Source: Minisyncoccota bacterium
Lineage (GTDB): Bacteria; Patescibacteriota; Minisyncoccia; Phycocordibacterales; Phycocordibacteraceae
DNA length: 64,000 nt
Assembly: GCA_028695415.1 (NCBI GenBank)
Contig: JAQVIY010000001.1
Span: 113,067-177,066 of the forward strand
Reading direction: 5' to 3'
In this document: positions 583 to 63,117 of the stretch, one piece after another
How positions within the stretch are numbered: the stretch's first letter is position 1
Layout: each line of letters opens with the position of its first letter
The notes under the pieces: model-generated
Seen by the model: the letters and a program-made list of their open reading frames with translations, nothing else
What the model was told of the DNA's origin: nothing
Databases searched by the model: none
Translations under genes and position numbers: made by a program

Positions 583-1055
583 CACAGCGCTTTTCGTTCA
601 TCTCCTTCGTTGCCGGCGTCATGCTCGGGGTTCTTCTTGCGGGGATGTGGTTCCTAAGCGATAGTATCGGATCATCACCTTTCTCATCCACGCCGCCTCT
701 TTCGAAAACAGGAGAGCAGAAGACGCCAGAAAGCGGGGCGGTTTCTGTCGCTAGTCAGCCTTCGGGAGAAAACGTCGCTATCGAATCGGTCACGGTCCCG
801 CCGCCGGGAGTGTGGGTTGCGGTGCGCGAAGCCAACGGTACTGACCTCGGGAACGTGCTCGGTGCGGAGCGTGTCGTCGGCCCGCATGGAAATGTAAGCG
901 TTTCGCTTTTGCGCCCGACAGAGCCGAATCGTTCCTATGCGGTCGAACTGTATCGCGATGACAACAACGGGACGTTTGACCCTGCGGTCAATAGCGTGTA
1001 TGTCGACTTCGATACCGGTGCGCGTGTCGTCGCGTTCTTCTCGACAACTGAATGA
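579..1055 (+). CDS. hypothetical N-terminally membrane-anchored protein
   Basis: N-terminal hydrophobic helix (FISFVAGVMLGVLLAGMWFL). Translationally coupled on both sides (ATGA overlaps). Confidence 0.5.
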   Translation: MTQRFSFISFVAGVMLGVLLAGMWFLSDSIGSSPFSSTPPLSKTGEQKTPESGAVSVASQPSGENVAIESVTVPPPGVWVAVREANGTDLGNVLGAERVVGPHGNVSVSLLRPTEPNRSYAVELYRDDNNGTFDPAVNSVYVDFDTGARVVAFFSTTE

Positions 1056-1840
1056 TGATGGCACCGCGCAACCTAAAGACATTCGACCCCTCCTCGCCGG
1101 AGCCGTTCAAGATAAGCCGCTCGAAGCTGGATCTCTTCACCGAGTGTCCGCGTTGCTCGTACCTCGACTTGCGGCTCGGAGTGAAGCGGCCGTCGATGCC
1201 CGCGTTCACGCTCAACAATGCGGTCGACGAGCTCCTGAAACGCGAGTTCGATATCCATCGTGCGAAGGGGAGCAAACATCCGCTTGTCGAGAAATATGGG
1301 CTCGATGCGGTGCCGTTCGATGATCCGCGTATGGAGGAGTGGCGCGACGCGCTTCGTCGCGGCATCAGCTACCTCCACGCTCCGACCAATATCCTCCTGC
1401 GCGGCGGCATCGACGATGTGTGGATCAATCCAGCAGGCGAGCTTATCATCGTGGACTATAAGGCAACGAGCAAGAAGGTCGGTCCTTCTACCGAAGATGA
1501 CCTGTATGACTCGTACAAGCGCCAGCTCGAGATATATCAATGGCTGTTTCGTAAGAACGATTTTGCCGTATCGCCGACCGTCTACTTCGTTTATGTAAAC
1601 GGCAAGTCTGACGCCGAGGCGTTCGACGGCAAGCTTGAGTTTGATGTAGAGCTTATCCCGTATACCGGCAGCGACTCGTGGATCGAGCCTGCGCTCTACG
1701 ACCTGAAGCAGATGCTTATGAGCGAGGAGATACCAGCAGTAGGAAAGGCGTTCGGCGGCGGCCCGTGCGAGTTCTGCACCTATCGCGAAAACGCTGGCAA
1801 GATACTTCTTAGTCTTCACACAAAGAACAAGAAGAAATGA
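1052..1840 (+). CDS. Cas4/RecB-like PD-(D/E)XK nuclease with Fe-S cysteine cluster (DUF83-like), stand-alone
   Basis: N-terminal CPRC, a D...IVDYK catalytic core and a C-terminal C..CEFC arrangement typical of Cas4-family nucleases. No cas genes nearby. Confidence 0.6.
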
Positions 1841-1847
1841 TGAGAGT

Positions 1848-2591
1848 ATGCGGGTAAAAATAGAACCGTCGTGGGCGAAGCATCTCGCGGGCGAGTTTGA
1901 GAAAGAATATTTCAAAGAGCTCGCTGATTTTGTGAAGAAGGAATATCACGAGGGAAACGTGTATCCGGCGCCGAAGAACATTTTCCGTGCGTTTGATCTC
2001 TGTCCGTTTGAAAAAGTAAAAGTAGTCATCTTGGGTCAAGATCCGTATCACGGCACCGGACAAGCAAACGGTCTTAGTTTCGCCGTCGGCGAAGGTGTCG
2101 CGATCCCGCCGTCCCTACAGAACATCTTCAAAGAGATTGAGAGCGATTTGGGGGGCGACCGAGCGAGGAGCGAGGAAGTCCCGAGGCTAGCAAGCCGAGG
2201 GGGAGACCTGACTCGATGGGCAGAACAGGGGGTGCTCCTCTTGAACGCAACGCTCACTGTTCGGGCGCATCAGGCCGGCTCGCATCAGGAGAAAGGCTGG
2301 GAACAATTCACCGACGCGGTTATCAGGGCGCTCTCCGAAGAGCGTGAACATCTTGTCTTTATTCTCTGGGGCAACTACGCGAAGGCGAAAGGGGCGCAGA
2401 TCGACCGAGCGTCGAGCGAGGAAGTCCTGAGGCCAGCAGGCCGAACGGGCGACCGTTCGAAACATCTCGTCATCGAATCGCCCCACCCCTCACCATTTTC
2501 TGCCGCCTCGGGATTCTTCGGATCGCGACCTTTTAGCAAAGCGAACACCTATCTCACCGCTCACGGCGAAACTCCCATCGACTGGCGCTAA
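1848..2591 (+). CDS. ung: uracil-DNA glycosylase, family 1, carrying two in-frame repeat insertions
   Basis: [35 protein letters not shown] and HPSPFSA motifs. Confidence 0.9.
2157..2208 (+). repeat. 52-nt repeat copy 1 inside ung, in frame (encodes [17 protein letters not shown])
   Basis: Nearly identical to 2403..2454. Both lie where canonical UNG has shorter loops. Confidence 0.8.
2403..2454 (+). repeat. 52-nt repeat copy 2 inside ung, in frame (encodes [17 protein letters not shown])
   Basis: Direct repeat of 2157..2208 with a few substitutions, in the same reading frame. Confidence 0.8.
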
Positions 2592-3490: not shown

Positions 3491-3584
3491 ACGTGCTTGT
3501 CGAAGAGGAATATGGTACAACTATGCTTTAGAACGACCGTTTCAGGCCCTTTTCGTACAGCAACGTTTTATGGGGAGATAGACA

Positions 3585-17184: not shown

Positions 17185-17245
17185 TTGCGTTTATAGTAGG
17201 GTTTTTTGTAGAATCGTTATTGGCGTAATAATTATATTTTTGAGT

Positions 17246-19126
17246 ATGGCAAAAATCCTTGGTATTGATCTGGGAACCACCTATTCCGCGATGGCGATTG
17301 TCGAGGGCGGCGAGCCGCGCGTACTTGAGAATGCAGAGGGGTCGCGCACGACCCCCTCTATCGTCGCAGTAGGGAAGAACGGCGAGCGCATCGTCGGCAC
17401 GCTCGCGAAGCGCCAGTCGGTGACCAACCCGCTCAACACCATCTTCCAGGTGAAGCGCTTTATCGGACACTCGTTTGATGAGCCGGAAGTGCAGAAAGAC
17501 AAGGCGGCAGTACCCTTCGAGATGCAGAAGGGGGCGAACGGCGGCATCGAGATCAAGATGAACGATAAGTGGTATCGCCCCGAGGAACTCTCGGCGATGA
17601 TACTCGGCAAGATGAAGAGCGACGCCGAGGCGAAGACAGGCGAGAAGATAACCGAAGCGGTCATCACCGTCCCCGCTTATTTCAACGATGACCAGCGGAG
17701 CGCGACCAAGGCGGCGGGAGAAATTGCCGGCCTTACGGTAAAGCGCATTATCAACGAGCCGACCGCAGCAGCGCTCGCCTACGGATTCAATAAAAAGAAA
17801 GATGAGAAGATCGCCGTGTTCGATTTCGGCGGCGGGACCTTCGATATCTCGGTCCTCGAAGTGGGCGGCGATGTTATCGAGGTGAAGTCGACCGACGGCG
17901 ATGCCCACCTGGGCGGCAAGGATATCGACCAGAAGATCATCACCTGGCTCGCCGAAGAATTCAAGAAGGAGAGCGGTATCGATGTGCTTACCGATGCGCT
18001 CGCGCGCCAGCGCCTCGACGAGGCTGCAGAGAAGGCGAAAATCGAGCTCTCGAGCGCGATGGAGACCGAGATCAATATCCCGTTCCTGACCTCAGACGCT
18101 TCCGGCCCGCGCCACCTGCTTATTAAGATGACTCGCGCGAAGCTTGAAGACCTCGCGGGAGAGTTTATCGCCCGCGCGATAGACATCACCAAGCGCGCGA
18201 TGGACGCATCGCCCTTCAAGGTGGCGGATATCAACGAGGTGATACTCGTGGGCGGCCAGACCCGTATGCCCGCGATACAGGCTGCGGTCGAGAAGTTCTT
18301 CGCTAAGAAGCCGAACATGTCGGTGAACCCGGACGAGGTGGTTGCTATCGGCGCCGCTATTCAGGCCGGCATTCTCCAGGGCGACGTGAAGGATATCCTT
18401 CTCGTGGATGTTATCCCGCTTTCGCTCGCTATCGAGACGATGGGCGGCGTTGCGACCAAACTCGTCGAACGCAACACCGCGATACCGACCAGCCGTTCGC
18501 AGACCTTCTCTACCGCCACAGATAATCAGGCATCTGTGGAGATTCATATCACGCAGGGCGAACGCGCAATGAGCGCCGACAACAAGTCGCTCGGTAAGTT
18601 TATGCTCGACGGTATTCCGCCGGCGCCGCGAGGGCTTCCGCAGGTTGAGGTGTCGTTCGACATTGATGCGTCCGGTATTCTCACCGTCACCGCGAAGGAG
18701 AAGACGACCGGCAAAGAGCAGTCGATAAAGATTACCGGCTCCACCGGACTCTCGAAAGAAGATATTGAGAAGATGAAGGCCGATGCCGAGGCGCACAGCG
18801 CCGATGACGAGAAGCGTCGCGAGCTCATCGAAGTACGCAATGCCGCCGATCAGGCTGTCTATGCCGCGGAGAAGTCAATAAAGGATTACGGCGAGAAAGC
18901 GGGCACGGAGGTGGTGAAGGATGTGCAGGATAAGATAGAGGCACTCAAGACCGCGCGAAACAGCGAAGATGCCGGCACGGTGAAGTCAGCCACCGATACG
19001 CTTTCGCAGGCGCTCTCGAAGATCGGTGAGGCGATGATGTCCTCCTCTGCCAAGGCTACGGAGGATAAAAAAGAACCACCGGAAGCATCCGAGCCGACCG
19101 ATGCCGAATTCAAAGAGAAAGAATAA
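17246..19126 (+). CDS. dnaK: molecular chaperone DnaK (Hsp70)
   Basis: [18 protein letters not shown] and overall Hsp70 sequence. Confidence 0.97.
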
Positions 19127-21143: not shown

Positions 21144-21272
21144 GGACAAACTTGGCATTATATATTTATATAGCATCTTCAAATGTAACGGTATTACGCA
21201 AGGCGATGCCAAGTTGTACTACCGGGCTCGCCCGGTAACCTCTCCGTGCGTTGGTGTGATAAAATAAACCCC

Positions 21273-21587
21273 ATGACGCAAGGCAACGAGAAAAACGCAG
21301 GAGAAGTGACGCTTGACGACCTGGCACAGATGGTCGCAGGCGGCTTCCAAGATATCGAAACTCGACTAGTGGGCCGAATAGACCGGCTTGAGGCAAAAAT
21401 GGACCAGAAGTTCTCTGAGGTTGACGACCGTCTTCTCAATCTTGAACGCACCACTTCGGAGACGAAGGTCGCGGTGCTTGATATGAAAGAAGATCTCGCT
21501 GCGACGAACAGCGAGAACGAGGATAACTCCCTTCAACTCACCGACCACGAGCGTCGCATCATCGCGCTTGAGACGGCGACCGCCTAA
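21273..21587 (+). CDS. small coiled-coil protein, paralog A (shares an N-terminal 25 aa and a central block with 23446..23790)
   Basis: MTQGNEKNAGEVTLDDLAQMVAGGF... and LEAKMDQKFSEVDDRLLNLERTTSETKVAVLDMKEDLAAT are identical to paralog B. Confidence 0.6.
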   Translation: MTQGNEKNAGEVTLDDLAQMVAGGFQDIETRLVGRIDRLEAKMDQKFSEVDDRLLNLERTTSETKVAVLDMKEDLAATNSENEDNSLQLTDHERRIIALETATA

Positions 21588-23418: not shown

Positions 23419-23445
23419 TAGTGCTGGTGTGATAAAATAAACCCC

Positions 23446-23790
23446 ATGACGCAAGGCAACGAGAAAAACGCAGGAGAAGTGACGCTTGACGACCTGGCGC
23501 AGATGGTCGCAGGTGGCTTTTCTGAAATGCACGAGGAGATGCATGGTCTTGAAGAACGACTGGATGGACTCGGTGGCCGAATGGGTCGTCTCGAAGCAAA
23601 AATGGACCAGAAGTTCTCTGAGGTTGACGACCGTCTTCTCAATCTTGAACGCACCACTTCGGAGACGAAGGTCGCGGTGCTTGATATGAAAGAAGATCTC
23701 GCGGCGACGCATATCGCAAACGAGAATAATTCTCACCAACTCATCGGTCACGAACACCGCATCGCGACGCTTGAAGCAAGCGTCGCGTAA
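23446..23790 (+). CDS. small coiled-coil protein, paralog B
   Basis: Same 5' region (about 70 nt upstream plus the first 25 codons, near-identical at nucleotide level) and same central block as paralog A. Confidence 0.6.
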   Translation: MTQGNEKNAGEVTLDDLAQMVAGGFSEMHEEMHGLEERLDGLGGRMGRLEAKMDQKFSEVDDRLLNLERTTSETKVAVLDMKEDLAATHIANENNSHQLIGHEHRIATLEASVA

Positions 23791-58422: not shown

Positions 58423-61400
58423 TTATTTCTTCAAGGTGCGGACAAAGATGCTCAAGTCAGTGACATCGACTTTCCCGTCGCCGTTCAGATCATCGAGAAG
58501 TTGTGTCGCCTTGTTCGAGGAACTCCAGCGGGAAAGGAAGATGCTCCAGTCCTGCACATTTATCACGCCGTCCTGATTGAAGTCGGTCTGAGGAGTGAAG
58601 AGTGTCGTCACGGTGAACACTTTCTGAGGCGCAAAGTCGCTCGCTACACCGGAGGGCGAGGTCTGGCGAACCCGCACGGTGTGGCTGCCGAGCGAGAGAG
58701 AGCCGGTCGGATAAAGGATCTTATACGCGCCATCGGCGTCTGCCTTGGCCGTGACGGAGACTGCTTTGCCGTCAACCTGGGCGCTCACAGTGTATCCCGG
58801 CACCGCCATACCAATAAACCCGACGGTATCATTTTGTCGAACGGTCGGCCGAACGAGACCGAGGGTCGGCGAGAGCGCGGTATCAAGCGCAAGGAGCGCA
58901 TTGCTGCTCGTGTAATTAGCATTGAACGCCTTTATCTGGGTCGTGCGCCCGAGATCGTCAACACCGACAATGCCATAGGAACCAATCCCGACCGTAATTC
59001 CTTTCAGGAGGATTGAGAACGAACCGTTTGCTCGCGCCGTCGCTTGTCCTGCGAGAGTCGCTCCCGCCGGTGACACGGCGAGCACCTGCACACTCGCGTT
59101 CGGGAACGCTCGTCCGGAGATCTGTACGCCGGTTATCGCCGGTACCGGTTCAAGACCCGTACCGCCGCCGCTCACGCCCGTCACCGGTACAACCGGTATA
59201 GCTGAGAACAGCAGGCTCTGTGTCGAGGAAACATCGAGGCCGGTGGACTGCGTATCGGAGAGCGAGAGCGTTACCGTCTCAGCGACAGTATCGGAAAGCG
59301 AGATTGTCCCGACGCCGTTTGTCATCGTCACGAGCCCGGCCCCCGTAGCAGAGCCGTCCGTGCGAAGTGTCACGCCCGATACGATTGTCGTGTCGACATT
59401 TCCGTTCTCGTCTTGCGCTTCAACAGTTACGATAGCGGGTGTCCCTACTTGCACCGATGCGGGAGGAAGGATGACGAGCCGCGTCGCGACTATCGGTATC
59501 GCACTCACGGTCACCGAATCAACTGCGTCTTGAACGCCCGCACTGTCAGGAGCTGATGCGTTGTCGGACGCGGTGATGAGCCACGTGCCGGGGGTCTCGT
59601 CATAATACCAGAACGTACCCGAGGAACTGCCGTCGTTGATGGTCGCAAAGGTCGTCGGAGCTCCACCTACCGCGACCGCATAAAAGGCGGTCGTCGTTCC
59701 GGTTGAAGACGAATAAAAGTAGGCGAGCGTTACCCCCGTCGTCACGAGGTTGTTGTATTGGTCTTCGCGAGTCACGGTGTATCCGAGCCGCGTGCCTGCG
59801 GTCATATTACCCGGGTCGTTGAGGAGGAACTTCGCGACAGTTGCCGGCTGTACGGCGATAGCGTCGCTTGCATCAGCGATACCGCTTGCGTCGGGCGCTG
59901 TCGCGTTGTCAGAAACCGTAATGAACCAATTCCCTGCTTTTTCGTCGTATGCCCAGAAAGCTCCTGAAGAATTTCCATTCGAGATAACGAGCGAGGTGAT
60001 AGCGCTCCCTCCTGACGCGGAATCATAGAACTTTTTATTCACGCCGGTCGAAGAGCTGTAGAGATACGCATCCGTTGCACCCGTCGTCACCAGATTTCCG
60101 TATTGATCTTTACGGGTGACCGTATATCCGATGCGCACGCCCGCCGCCGAATCCCCCGGGTTATCGAGCGAGAACTGTGCGACGGCCCCCGGAGCAAAGG
60201 TGAGCGGCTGTGTCGAAGAGACATCGAGACCGGTACCTTGCGAATCGGCAAGAGAGAGTGTTCGCGTTCCCGCATGCGTATCGGAGAGCGGGAGCGTACC
60301 GACGCCGTTTACGATATTCACGAGTCCGGTGCCAGTTACGGTACCCGTCGCGGAAAGCGTCACATCGCTCTCATACGAGGTGTCGACATTACCGCTTCCA
60401 TCCTGCGCCTGCACCGTGACCGTTATCGGTGCGTCTACCGTCCCGTTTACAGGCGGGAGGATAACGAACCGCGTCGCAACTATCGGGGCCGCGTTTACTG
60501 CAACAGCGTCAGAAGCATCTGCGACACCCGTTGCCCCATCGGCAGTCGGCGTTGCATCAGAGACGGTCACGTTCCAGGTTCCTAGATTCGGATCCTCGTA
60601 CCAGAACGACGCGGACGATGCGCTATCGGGTATCGCAAGCGAGGTGATGCTGTTTCCGAGAGAAGCGGCATCATAAAACGCCGGGGAGCTCGTCCCGACG
60701 GAATTGCTGTAGAGATACACGTTTGTGCTGCCGCTTGTCGCGAGATTATTGAACTGGTCCTTGCGCGTCACGGTGTACCCAATCCGCGTGTCGACAGTCA
60801 TATCGCCAGGGTCATTGAGGGAGAGTGCAGCCGTCGGTCCCGCGACGACTCCAAGCGTTTGTACGGCATCATTGACGCCTGTAGTGCCGTCAGGCGCAGA
60901 CGCGTTGTCCGAAGCGGTAATACTCCAGCTCCCTGGAAGAGTGTCGTAATACCAGACACTCGCGCTCGACTGACCGGCAACTATCTGTACTGAAGATATG
61001 ACCGCACCGCCTGTCGCGGCGTCATAGAACTTCTTACTGCTTCCTGTCGAAGAACTATAGAGATATACCGTGCTGGTCGCAGACGAGCTTACATTGCCGT
61101 ACTGATCCTTGCGCGTCACGGTGTACGCCGCTCGTTCTCCCGCAATCAGCGTCGAGGGATTAGAAAGAGAGAACTGTGCAAGAACTCCTCCTGTGAAAGC
61201 GAGCGACTGTGTCGAAGATACATCGAGTCCGGTACTCTCTGAATCAGAGAGTGAGAGCGCCGCCGTCTCAGCAACCGTGTCTGAGATGGCGAGCGTGCCG
61301 ACGCCGTTTATGATATCTACGAGTCCGCCGCCGGTGGCAGAGCCGGTCGTCGCGAGCGTCACGTCGCTTTGATAATTAGTATCGACGCTGGTATCGGGTT

Positions 61401-63117
61401 TCTGCGCCTGCACCGTGACCGTTATCGGTGCGTCTACGGTCCCGCTTGTAGGAGGCAGGATGACGAACTTCGTCGCAACCGGCATCACCGTGACCGCATC
61501 AGTTGCGTCAGTGATGCCGGTAGCCCCGTCAGCGACCGGTGTCGCATCGGAAGCGGTGATGGTATATGAGCCCGGCGTCTCGTCGTAGTACCAGACGTTC
61601 GCCGTCGAATGTCCCGAACCTATCGCGATAGAGGTGATGACGGAACCTGCGAGAGAATCGTCATAAAACTTCTGCGTCCCTCCCGTCGAAGTGGTATAGA
61701 GGTAGACGGTCGTCGTCCCTGTGCCGACGGCATTCCCATACGAATCAAACCGGCTCACGGTATAGCCGAGTCGCGTTTTCGCGTACATGTCACCTGGGTT
61801 AGTAAGGGTAAGCGAAGCAACGGCTCCCGTGGCGACTACGAACGACTGGTCGACATTTGAGGCAGCAGTATAGTTGCTGTCCCCCGCTTGTGAGGCACGA
61901 ATGGTACAGGTGCCGATTGAGACAAGGTGCACGGTTGCCGTACTCACCGTACAGACACCGGCCGTAAGCGATGAGAATGAGACCGCGAGGCCGGAAGATG
62001 CGGTCGCGCTTACCGCGAAGTCAGCCTCGCCGAGCGTCTTGTTCGGGAGCGGGTTGAAGGTGATCGTCTGACTCGCAGGATTGATCGTGAATGTGCCGGC
62101 AGAAGCGGCAGTCAAGCTCGTATAGCTTGTCGTATCCGTCGGGACGAAGTTTGCAGTAACCGCATAGGAGCCGCCATTCGTTTGTGTTGCAGCACCACCC
62201 GTAAGCACAGTGTTCGCTGCTCCCGGAACGGATCCGGTAACCGTAGCCGCCTGAGCGGATCCGGTATAGGTGACGGGCGAATTGGTAACCGAGAGTGTGG
62301 GGGTCGCGCGCGTATCGTTCGTCACGCTGAGCTTGCCGGTTGTCGCCGCAAAGTACGTATTATTTTTATAGGTTGCCGTAGAGCTGGTGGAGCCCCAAGT
62401 GCCGTTGATTCTGCCGAGCCCGCCGAGCGTGAGATTAGCGACCGTGAGAGTAGTCCCCGCACCGATACTCGCTGTCGGTGTCCCGGTAGACGCGACACTG
62501 AGCGTGCCTCCGATTGAAATGCCCGACGCCATGGACTTTGTTCCGCTCCCGGAAAGCGTCACGTTGTTGTAAGTGAATACACCAAGCGTTTGATTGCCGG
62601 ACGCTGAATAGCTTGCGGTGCTGCCTGAGTTATACGCCCAATTGGCGATGCCCGTGGTCGCGGCAGTTGTGCTGAAATTGATAACGCCTCCATTATTGAC
62701 CTGCACGGTAGGACTATTCCCTGCGCCATTCTTGTTAAGACCATTGCTAACGGTTATTCGGAATGTTCCATTGACTACCATTCCGGGGTTCAGATTGTTT
62801 TTGATACCGAAGACCTTTCCTCCGTCCGTGAGTGTTCCGCCGCTGTTTATGGTGACAACGCCGGACTGGTTGAGGTTCGCACTCAGGCTCACCGTATCGC
62901 CAGACGCGATGATAACTGTGTCACTTGTCGCCGGCACGACACCGCCCGCCCATGTAGAGCCAACACTCCAGATACCACCACCGGTCCCGTTGCTTGTTCT
63001 TGTCGCGGCGAATGCCGTATTGGCTCCACTCAAAACGAACAACACTGCACTCACTATCACAACACGTCGGCAGATGGTACTCATAAAGTGAATATAAAGA
63101 TTAGTATCTCTATACAA
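58423..63117 (-). CDS. giant secreted surface protein (about 1560 aa): signal peptide, beta-strand-rich N-terminal region, Ig-like/MBG-like domains, two interleaved tandem repeat families, and a C-terminal type-I dockerin
   Basis: C-terminal DFNQDGVINVQD...DLNGDGKVDVTD is a two-loop calcium-binding dockerin. N-terminal signal peptide. The start may be the internal ATG 33 nt downstream. Confidence 0.85.
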   Translation of the reverse strand: MYRDTNLYIHFMSTICRRVVIVSAVLFVLSGANTAFAATRTSNGTGGGIWSVGSTWAGGVVPATSDTVIIASGDTVSLSANLNQSGVVTINSGGTLTDGGKVFGIKNNLNPGMVVNGTFRITVSNGLNKNGAGNSPTVQVNNGGVINFSTTAATTGIANWAYNSGSTASYSASGNQTLGVFTYNNVTLSGSGTKSMASGISIGGTLSVASTGTPTASIGAGTTLTVANLTLGGLGRINGTWGSTSSTATYKNNTYFAATTGKLSVTNDTRATPTLSVTNSPVTYTGSAQAATVTGSVPGAANTVLTGGAATQTNGGSYAVTANFVPTDTTSYTSLTAASAGTFTINPASQTITFNPLPNKTLGEADFAVSATASSGLAVSFSSLTAGVCTVSTATVHLVSIGTCTIRASQAGDSNYTAASNVDQSFVVATGAVASLTLTNPGDMYAKTRLGYTVSRFDSYGNAVGTGTTTVYLYTTSTGGTQKFYDDSLAGSVITSIAIGSGHSTANVWYYDETPGSYTITASDATPVADGATGITDATDAVTVMPVATKFVILPPTSGTVDAPITVTVQAQKPDTSVDTNYQSDVTLATTGSATGGGLVDIINGVGTLAISDTVAETAALSLSDSESTGLDVSSTQSLAFTGGVLAQFSLSNPSTLIAGERAAYTVTRKDQYGNVSSSATSTVYLYSSSTGSSKKFYDAATGGAVISSVQIVAGQSSASVWYYDTLPGSWSITASDNASAPDGTTGVNDAVQTLGVVAGPTAALSLNDPGDMTVDTRIGYTVTRKDQFNNLATSGSTNVYLYSNSVGTSSPAFYDAASLGNSITSLAIPDSASSASFWYEDPNLGTWNVTVSDATPTADGATGVADASDAVAVNAAPIVATRFVILPPVNGTVDAPITVTVQAQDGSGNVDTSYESDVTLSATGTVTGTGLVNIVNGVGTLPLSDTHAGTRTLSLADSQGTGLDVSSTQPLTFAPGAVAQFSLDNPGDSAAGVRIGYTVTRKDQYGNLVTTGATDAYLYSSSTGVNKKFYDSASGGSAITSLVISNGNSSGAFWAYDEKAGNWFITVSDNATAPDASGIADASDAIAVQPATVAKFLLNDPGNMTAGTRLGYTVTREDQYNNLVTTGVTLAYFYSSSTGTTTAFYAVAVGGAPTTFATINDGSSSGTFWYYDETPGTWLITASDNASAPDSAGVQDAVDSVTVSAIPIVATRLVILPPASVQVGTPAIVTVEAQDENGNVDTTIVSGVTLRTDGSATGAGLVTMTNGVGTISLSDTVAETVTLSLSDTQSTGLDVSSTQSLLFSAIPVVPVTGVSGGGTGLEPVPAITGVQISGRAFPNASVQVLAVSPAGATLAGQATARANGSFSILLKGITVGIGSYGIVGVDDLGRTTQIKAFNANYTSSNALLALDTALSPTLGLVRPTVRQNDTVGFIGMAVPGYTVSAQVDGKAVSVTAKADADGAYKILYPTGSLSLGSHTVRVRQTSPSGVASDFAPQKVFTVTTLFTPQTDFNQDGVINVQDWSIFLSRWSSSNKATQLLDDLNGDGKVDVTDLSIFVRTLKK
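59370..61830 (-). repeat. interleaved tandem coding repeats inside the giant protein gene (about 115-aa unit x5 and about 95-aa unit x3)
   Basis: Unit A recurs as ..YTVTRKDQYGN...VYLYSSSTG..KKFYD..GG..I.S..I..G.SS..W.YDE.PG.W.ITASDNA.APD. Unit B as VATRFVILPP..GTVDAPITVTVQAQ...GNVDT....DVTL...G..TG.GLV.I.NGVGT..LSDT.A.T..LSL.DS..TGLDVSSTQ.L.F. Boundaries approximate. Confidence 0.7.

Follow-up and report, generated by a model that had tools for sequence, protein, structure and literature searches.

We report that ung, the gene for a family-1 uracil-DNA glycosylase (UDG), contains two copies of a 48-nucleotide (nt) repeat in a Minisyncoccota bacterium, and that these are probably copies of a short G+C- and purine-rich, non-autonomous, structured mobile or dispersed DNA element of Patescibacteria (Paceibacteria/Parcubacteria-type). 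The gene (1848..2591, + strand, 247 aa) lies in a 64,000-nt stretch of contig JAQVIY010000001.1 (assembly GCA_028695415.1, positions 113,067 to 177,066), hereafter the window. The same 48 nt occur in other genes, in both orientations and in other Patescibacteria genomes and metagenomes, and their presence in ung is polymorphic among relatives, which bears out the proposal of an initial annotation of this DNA that the repeats represent a small insertion element.

The two copies lie in a direct repeat (2156-2208 and 2402-2454) of 53 nt with 85% identity, with starts 246 nt apart and a gap of 193 nt. The start spacing equals 82 codons and, therefore, both copies are in the same reading frame of an intact open reading frame (ORF) of 247 aa, so that the original description of two same-frame repeats about 190 nt apart holds. 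The repeat itself had been described as a 52-nt element, but its true unit is 48 nt, or 16 codons; what the two copies have in common beyond it is the flanking GCGACC. Copy 1 (2156..2203, +), at ung site 1 and covering residues ~103-119, was identified by the repeat, by nhmmer and by a covariance model score of 74.4 bits, and copy 2 (2402..2449, +), at ung site 2 and covering residues 186-201, scored 76.7 bits; the highest score elsewhere in the window was 10.9 bits. The nhmmer E-values of the two copies are 1e-12 to 1e-13, and the observed count of the 14-mer common to both was reached in none of 100 shuffles. The G+C content is 70-72% in the copies vs 56% in ung. No third copy was detected in the 64-kb window with the 14-mer allowing 2 mismatches, blastn-short, the nhmmer profile or the covariance model with filters off.

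An alignment of 26 distinct copies, gapless except for one nested copy, defines the 48-nt unit of 16 codons as CGACCGAGCG-nnn-AGCGAGGAAGTCC-YGA-stem-AGCA-stem'-GAR-nGG, with the consensus C GACCGAGCG nnn AGCGAGGAAGTCC YGA GGCC AGCA GGCC GAR nGG. In about half of the copies, the unit is followed by GCGAC(C), a repeat of the 5' end of the element. The unit can fold into two hairpins, CC-GA-GC-[GnnnA]-GC-GA-GG (hairpin 1), in which the loop triplet is the sole hypervariable part of the element, and UCCY-GA-NNNN-[AGCA]-N'N'N'N'-GA-RGGG (hairpin 2), both with a symmetric GA/GA internal loop. Across the 12 pairs, 92.6% of the alignment cells are paired, and six pairs show double-sided changes across 21 cells; the covariation score was not reached in any of 500 column shuffles, and sliding the 3' partners lowered pairing to 33-45%. 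In hairpin 2, five of the eight pairs change on both sides. Hairpin 1, with 98% of the cells paired, varies little and contains a single covarying pair, C-G to U-A. Positions outside the stems are also nearly invariant. The consensus contains 36 purines in 55 nt and only two T residues, and the purine richness, together with the GA/GA loops and G-U pairs, makes the structure strand-specific. The consensus can be read without a stop in five of its six frames, a TGA occurring in the +2 frame alone.

Both window copies conform to this architecture. In copy 1, which belongs to the CCC...GGCT/AGCC...GAGGGG subfamily, hairpin 1 of the RNAalifold consensus spans 2159..2175 (+; CC-GA-GC-[GAGGA]-GC-GA-GG), with the hypervariable triplet at 2166-2168 in the loop, and hairpin 2, drawn from the covariation counts, spans 2179..2202 (+; TCCC-GA-GGCT-[AGCA]-AGCC-GA-GGGG), with the tandem GA/GA internal loop. 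In copy 2, a member of the consensus subfamily, the same two approaches place hairpin 1 at 2405..2421 (+), with the loop triplet TCG at 2412-2414, and hairpin 2 at 2425..2448 (+; TCCT-GA-GGCC-[AGCA]-GGCC-GA-ACGG). A cmscan of positions 1800-2700 against Rfam 15 at E<=10 gave three weak matches (E 0.5-2.1, far below the gathering scores), none of them over the repeats; with no relevant Rfam match at this threshold, a hammerhead-like, RNase P-like or signal recognition particle-like core was rejected.

Further copies of the element were found in two collections. Among species genomes, each species being represented by a single genome, an exact search for the 3' half produced five matches, all at ung site 1, one of which (L004) is a tandem pair of 48-nt units. 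In metagenome contigs, an exact search for the 5' half yielded 18 loci, namely, five ung genes (two of them, L010 and L012, with the element inverted), 11 with recognisable copies but without ung and two weak partial matches (L008 and L020). A profile built from these copies then recovered additional ones. The latter two match the pattern over 25 nt and have a different 3' part, and were treated as unrelated or very distant. In L008, the matching G+C-rich stretch (1118-1211) lies in a 36-nt tandem repeat (GATGACCGAGCGGCCAGCGAGGAAACCCCCAGCGGG), the first half of which resembles hairpin 1 of the element.

The hosts of the additional copies are diverse. In DnaE, one copy occupies a variable loop of the PHP domain, where it reads SDRAKSEEVLRTAVRMGD. 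An HhH-GPD 3-methyladenine glycosylase gene can carry the element in reverse orientation close to the N-terminus and in forward orientation beyond the catalytic domain; three loci differ in the copies they hold, so that the glycosylase loci, too, are polymorphic for the presence of the element. The N-terminus of an ATP-cone/Mrr_cat gene, located 2.4 kb from ung in L024, contains a copy with the private GTA variant of that genome, and the N-terminus of an unidentified 375-aa ORF (L018) contains a copy in a third frame. A variant without the inner stem of hairpin 2 occupies the C-terminal end of a GalT-like ORF, another copy lies at the 3' end of an MnmA-like ORF, and one lies between genes, 15 nt upstream of a gene for an ABC transporter. 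The host ORFs of L018 (375 aa) and L006 (215 aa) could not be assigned with Pfam or NCBIfam.

Taken together, the copies occur in both orientations and in at least three frames, and the forward, reverse and +3 readings encode different peptides. Inversion is found even within ung site 1 (L010, L012 and L028). Furthermore, units can be combined: a tandem 48-nt pair is present in L004 and L021, and in L032 the loop of the site-1 copy harbours another complete 48-nt unit, the stem of which (GCTC/GAGC) is compensated in its own right. Among IMG/VR viral contigs (searched with two patterns), INPHARED phages and PLSDB plasmids, there were no copies. A protein census with five concatenated open-frame translations returned 193 candidates, none of them at E<=10, which is explained by the fact that matches of 17 aa cannot reach significance in 5.8 billion sequences.

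The distribution of the element among relatives was assessed in the 120 best UNG homologs, all of Patescibacteria type and 70-78% identical to the window UNG. Site 1 holds the 48-nt element in 34 of them, 32 with the forward peptide and two with an inverted copy that reads DRAPRPAGLGTSSLNAQS, the reverse complement of the same DNA, in frame. In the remaining 86 homologs, site 1 contains the canonical loop G-KPLVHTS-GDL or other short sequences, and the insert-free homologs are as close to the window UNG as the insert carriers. Three site-1 versions (P0007, P0080 and P0051) look decayed, as expected of selfish DNA. At site 2, the window protein is alone among the 120 homologs in carrying the element. 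In a weakly resolved neighbour-joining tree built with the insert columns masked, the window UNG is placed among insert-free relatives, and presence of the element clusters without forming a single clade, with at least 10 parsimony changes vs about 30 for shuffled states, a number at odds with a single ancestral insertion in ung. The forward site-1 copies have common junctions and all lack KPLVHTS and, therefore, the element replaced the loop there. The shared junction sequences indicate that this replacement probably happened once or a few times, long ago. In the initial annotation, a loop extension conserved across the lineage with no nucleotide-level repeat elsewhere had been set against the insertion of an element; the site-1 insert is indeed lineage-wide in many Paceibacteria UNGs, but nucleotide-level repeats elsewhere do exist.

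The breadth of this sampling also bears on the possibility of an assembly or binning artefact, with a chimeric repeat in the contig. The source is a metagenome-assembled genome (MAG), but neither copy disturbs the reading frame of a gene that is intact in all other respects, the same insert occupies the same site in dozens of independent assemblies (NCBI, JGI, ENA and Logan), and there is no resemblance to adapters or vectors and no match among plasmids or phages. We consider the probability of an artefact to be negligible.

Conservation of the element was compared with that of the surrounding gene in UNG loci chosen by protein only (the window and L024-L027). At pairs of positions with the same amino acid, the fraction of identical codons is 0.92 in the element vs 0.47 in the rest of ung, and the nucleotide identity is 0.88 vs 0.74, with sharp boundaries. 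As judged by these codon identities, conservation acts at the nucleic-acid level.

The kinship of the copies is also informative. When the loop triplet is left out, the site-2 window copy fully matches the copy at site 1 of L003 and differs by one mismatch from the copies in L001 (ung, labelled Saccharibacteria), L006 (non-ung) and L016 (glycosylase), whereas its neighbour at site 1 differs from it at 7 of 47 positions, two compensated pairs among them. The site-1 window copy, in turn, is identical outside the loop triplet to the copy in L002, the UNG of which is only 75% identical at the protein level. Given that foreign copies are nearer than the neighbouring one, the two window copies come from different subfamilies and were acquired separately. 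By these sequence comparisons, a recent intragenic duplication within ung is excluded, and the earlier suggestion of a repeat copied within the gene is not supported. More broadly, it appears very unlikely that the repeats originated by duplication within ung and were kept since the extra loops serve UNG, for example, in binding a partner or an inhibitor. Such an origin would account for the two copies in one gene with none elsewhere in the 64 kb, and for the wide spread of the site-1 peptide among Paceibacteria UNGs. It is effectively refuted by the occurrence of the same DNA in unrelated genes and between genes, and it is also at odds with the unrelated peptide encoded by reverse copies at the same ung site, with conservation at the level of codons rather than the peptide, with the compensatory stem changes, with the greater proximity of the site-2 copy to foreign copies than to site 1, and with the predicted disorder of the loops.

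Apart from the inserts, the host protein is a typical UNG. It is 100% identical to an NCBI uracil-DNA glycosylase of a ‘Candidatus Pacebacteria’ MAG (209-kb contig), belongs to Pfam PF03167 and matches family-1 UNGs in the PDB over the full length (E=5e-70). The motifs GQDPYH, PPS, LLLN, G-N and HPSPFS are intact and invariant across a 56-sequence family alignment, and the protein has the UDG fold, water-activating loop, Pro-rich loop, uracil pocket and intercalation loop that characterize the family, in agreement with its initial description as an otherwise canonical family-1 UDG with intact catalytic motifs. Each copy had been thought to be an insertion in a loop that is shorter in canonical UNGs. 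Alignment to solved UNG structures upholds this for site 2, where copy 2 is a clean insertion of 16 residues, but not for site 1, where copy 1 replaces the canonical loop KPLVHTS, with a net gain of 8-9 aa in a loop that normally consists of about 12 residues. At 16 residues, the inserts are too small for an intein, as was recognised at the outset, a self-splicing domain comprising more than about 130 residues with terminal nucleophiles.

We built an AlphaFold2 model of the window UNG with 56 homologs (mean pLDDT 71.7). In this model, insert 1 is a coil between helix 88-101 and helix 122-126, with pLDDT <50 at residues 104-116, and insert 2 is a coil between helix 176-187 and strand 207-211, with pLDDT <50 at residues 189-202. 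Both inserts are located outside the conserved catalytic motifs in the family alignment, and the low-confidence coils between secondary-structure elements fit the original view that they are tolerated in loops. Likewise, the copies in DnaE and the glycosylase occupy a variable loop or positions beyond the aligned domain. We infer that the 16-residue inserts would be translated as disordered surface segments and that the UNG would still work.

Alternatively, ribosomes could skip the inserts by hopping from the GAC codon at the start of each copy to a second GAC located 48 nt further on, in the manner of T4 gene 60 and yeast mitochondrial byp elements, and would thereby restore a canonical UNG. 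Both window copies are bracketed by such codons exactly 48 nt apart (2157-2159 / 2205-2207 and 2403-2405 / 2451-2453), as is the DnaE copy; the hairpin begins at the take-off codon, and GAC/GAC pairs serve gene-60-type cassettes (bioRxiv 10.1101/2022.08.31.505936). However, no stop or ‘hungry’ codon follows the take-off site, the next codon, CGA, being ordinary (6.2 per 1000 codons, 12% of Arg). The length of exactly 16 codons, with five of the six frames open, fits selection for translation and would be needless for bypassing. Furthermore, matched codons are lacking in copies in other frames or orientations and in the C-terminal copy of the glycosylase, and the gap is G+C-rich rather than AU-rich. 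Thus, bypassing is highly improbable.

The junctions provide some insight into how copies could arise. At site 2, the empty site of relatives reads ATC GAC CGT/CGC (L024 and L029), and the window reads ATC-[GACCGAGCG...GGGC]-GACCGT, so that exactly 48 nt were added beside a pre-existing CGACCG, identical to the first six bases of the element. This hexamer (2450..2455, +) is a direct repeat of the first 6 nt of copy 2 (2402-2407) and corresponds to the Asp-Arg codons of the pre-existing target found in the empty sites of relatives. Several other copies are without any flanking repeat. At ung site 1 and at the C-terminus of the glycosylase, the element replaces host sequence and is not merely added to it. 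The reverse copies in L010 and L028 keep the first 11 nt of a forward copy ahead of the inverted one. This pattern is fitted better by microhomology-guided copy-in or conversion than by classical cut-and-paste transposition.

A mobile or dispersed element could thus spread as follows. New copies would arise by copy-in that involves either a trans-acting enzyme or a template switch during replication or repair; this step is suggested by the short, variable microhomology to the element ends in place of a fixed target duplication. In genomes that are almost wholly coding, most insertions would land in genes, and those surviving purifying selection would be in frame, free of stops and located in surface loops or at protein termini. 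They would be read through as 16 extra, probably disordered, residues, leaving UNG functional. In the window ung, the site-1 copy may have been gained by descent or by exchange with a lineage in which the loop had already been replaced, and the site-2 copy would have come separately, from a different subfamily.

Several observations weigh against a mobile or dispersed element. The junction repeats vary, from 6 nt at site 2 to 3 nt (GCA) for the nested copy and 6-7 nt (GGCGAC(C)) at site 1, and there are neither terminal inverted repeats nor a constant target-site duplication. The genome fragments at hand revealed neither a transposase nor a RAYT or another gene that could mobilise the element, and the Pfam lists of flanking genes (64 kb of this genome and <=20-kb flanks of others) contain no Y1_Tnp. 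The copy number is low: the 64 kb contain two copies, both of them within ung, and ~190 kb of sequence flanking ung genes add about one more. The forward site-1 copies with the same junctions look orthologous and old, yet they are conserved synonymously; a purely selfish resident should drift unless it is repeatedly refreshed. Finally, the hosts are skewed towards repair, replication and restriction genes, with four of about nine host genes involved in genome maintenance, namely, those for UNG, 3-methyladenine glycosylase, DnaE and a Mrr-like nuclease (L009, L013, L015, L016, L024 and the window). Such a skew would not be expected from random insertion; the sample is small and the observation post hoc.

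The last two points are those on which the one serious rival draws, that is, that the element is a nucleic-acid signal maintained by the host or by drive in tolerant coding positions, either a DNA uptake or recombination site or a cis tag that co-regulates genome-maintenance genes. We regard this as unlikely, albeit worth keeping in mind. At orthologous site-1 copies, synonymous sites are kept (0.92 vs 0.47, as above) and the unpaired positions are invariant, as would suit a signal. Uptake sequences are found in both orientations inside coding regions. They are also enriched in genome-maintenance genes (PMC2397512), which the bias of the present hosts towards UNG, 3-methyladenine glycosylase, DnaE and the Mrr-like nuclease recalls. 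The double hairpin could then be a signal that is kept at orthologous sites and favours repair, replication and restriction genes, serving as an uptake or recombination tag that helps DNA-scavenging, possibly competent bacteria to re-acquire such genes, or as a binding site for a regulator or nuclease; the chance that this is so seems small to us. The density of the element is about 100-fold below that of uptake sequences, and 48 nt with covarying hairpins is unlike the 10-12 nt of a DNA uptake sequence (DUS). The occurrence of copies in both orientations relative to transcription argues against a cis function at the mRNA level. In addition, the element is absent from all sites in many of the close relatives, decayed copies exist, the nested and tandem arrangements resemble the outcome of insertion, and the host bias was noticed post hoc among about nine genes.

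A comparison with known elements sets the 48-nt unit apart from each of the established classes. Rickettsia palindromic elements (RPEs), as far as the summaries of Ogata et al. 2000 in PMC10969869 and PMC3184786 describe them, are ~105-150 bp long, confined to Rickettsia and located in frame inside unrelated ORFs. In the terms of these summaries, the two kinds of element are alike in being short, hairpin-forming repeats of non-coding origin that lie in frame in unrelated housekeeping genes of small, gene-dense genomes and are, or in the present case would be, translated as extra peptides at tolerant positions, with no known transposase or mechanism. The copies in UNG, DnaE, 3-methyladenine glycosylase and the Mrr-like gene share this in-frame, fold-compatible location inside unrelated ORFs. 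Within the limits of the same summaries, the present element differs by its size (48 nt vs ~105-150 bp), host (Patescibacteria vs Rickettsia) and architecture, and it is on these features, not on a consensus sequence, that the two are told apart. Features of the 48-nt element that distinguish it from RPEs are the two-hairpin GA/GA architecture, the low copy number and the strong synonymous conservation at the orthologous site. Judged by these likenesses, RPEs are the closest functional analogue, and by size, phylum and architecture the 48-nt element is not a member of this class and appears unrelated to it.

Repetitive extragenic palindromic (REP) sequences and REPINs resemble the element in being small (REP, ~35 nt) and G+C-rich, with imperfect hairpins, a conserved single-stranded 5' part and a strand-specific structure, so that recognition of folded single-stranded DNA is plausible, and in lacking terminal inverted repeats and a fixed target duplication. 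REP sequences are, however, extragenic by definition, usually present in hundreds of copies and equipped with a GTAG-type head followed by one imperfect palindrome, and they are associated with a RAYT (IS200/IS605-like HUH) gene. The copies described here are mostly intragenic, with one intergenic copy, and few; they start with CGACCGAGCG and contain two hairpins. [quoted passage not shown]

Yeast mitochondrial GC clusters and byp elements and the T4 gene-60 gap are also similar, as mobile G+C-rich hairpin inserts of ~30-55 nt in coding genes, with matching codons. The ribosome bypasses those inserts, in which there are stops or a change of frame and for which a stop or hungry codon has to follow the take-off site, whereas the 48-nt element is open over its 16 codons and is followed by an ordinary codon. 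The window copies have the matched codons and lack the stop or rare codon and a truncated read-through product. DUS and uptake signal sequences (USS) share with the element the occurrence in either orientation in coding regions, the enrichment in genome-maintenance genes and the persistence of intact copies at orthologous sites (PMC2397512); they are 10-12 nt (or ~29 nt) long, occur about once per kb and do not need a secondary structure, in contrast to the structured 48-nt element, present about once per 100 kb. A literature search with incomplete full-text coverage found no description of such elements in Patescibacteria, or the candidate phyla radiation (CPR), and with a library of that kind, this negative is absence of evidence only.

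The genomes of the CPR are tiny and almost fully coding, and little is known of their repeats or mobile DNA. A 16-codon element that is read through in UNG, DnaE and the glycosylase would offer a concrete mechanism for the unexplained small insertions in CPR proteins. ‘Lineage-specific loops’ in such proteins could accordingly be selfish DNA rather than adaptations, and the element might serve as a marker for recombination between uncultured lineages. If the synonymous conservation and the genome-maintenance skew reflect function, the element would represent a new kind of coding-embedded nucleic-acid signal.

In addition to the 48-nt element, we identified a second, unrelated mini-element, a hairpin with a perfect 7-bp stem, TCCTCCG-CCAAGGCTA-CGGAGGA, the in-frame translation of which is (P)SSAKATE(D) or SSAKATGG. 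This hairpin is present in the window at 19037-19063, in the C-terminal tail of dnaK (ORF 17240..19126, +), in rpoA of L026 (19485-19512) and at ung site 2 of L030 (10538-10575), and occupies ung site 2 in seven of the 120 UNG homologs. Its occurrence in dnaK, rpoA and ung suggests that there are several families of in-frame hairpin elements in the phylum, and that such elements are a general phenomenon in the group. A third kind of insert, of 18 residues (GFDPFDKLRASRLTAGHA), is found at ung site 2 of P0086 (L031, 1657-1710), with no other copy in the DNA examined.

The gene immediately 5' of ung in the window (1052-1840, +) encodes a PD-(D/E)XK nuclease (PF12705) with a C-terminal Cys cluster. 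This gene abuts or overlaps ung in the window, L024-L026 and L028, and is separated from it by one or two small genes in L027, L029 and L030. Most of the fetched loci contain a syntenic block consisting of genes for a tRNA-methyltransferase, a small ORF, ATP-cone-Mrr, DUF7282, PDDEXK and UDG. In L001, from a MAG labelled Saccharibacteria, a short second UNG-like fragment (3498-3575), with 73% identity to residues 221-246, lies ~640 nt downstream of ung and is possibly a pseudogene remnant; the same locus has a run of masked bases within the ORF upstream of ung.

Two further groups of repeats were observed in the window. Direct repeats of 95 nt (98% identity) and 208 nt (86% identity) link 21252-21571 with 23425-23774, ~2.2 kb apart, and look like a duplicated gene start, unrelated to the 48-nt element. 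Several repeat families, recurring every ~345 and 990-999 nt, occupy the region 59168-61704, as would fit a large gene for a protein with tandem domains.

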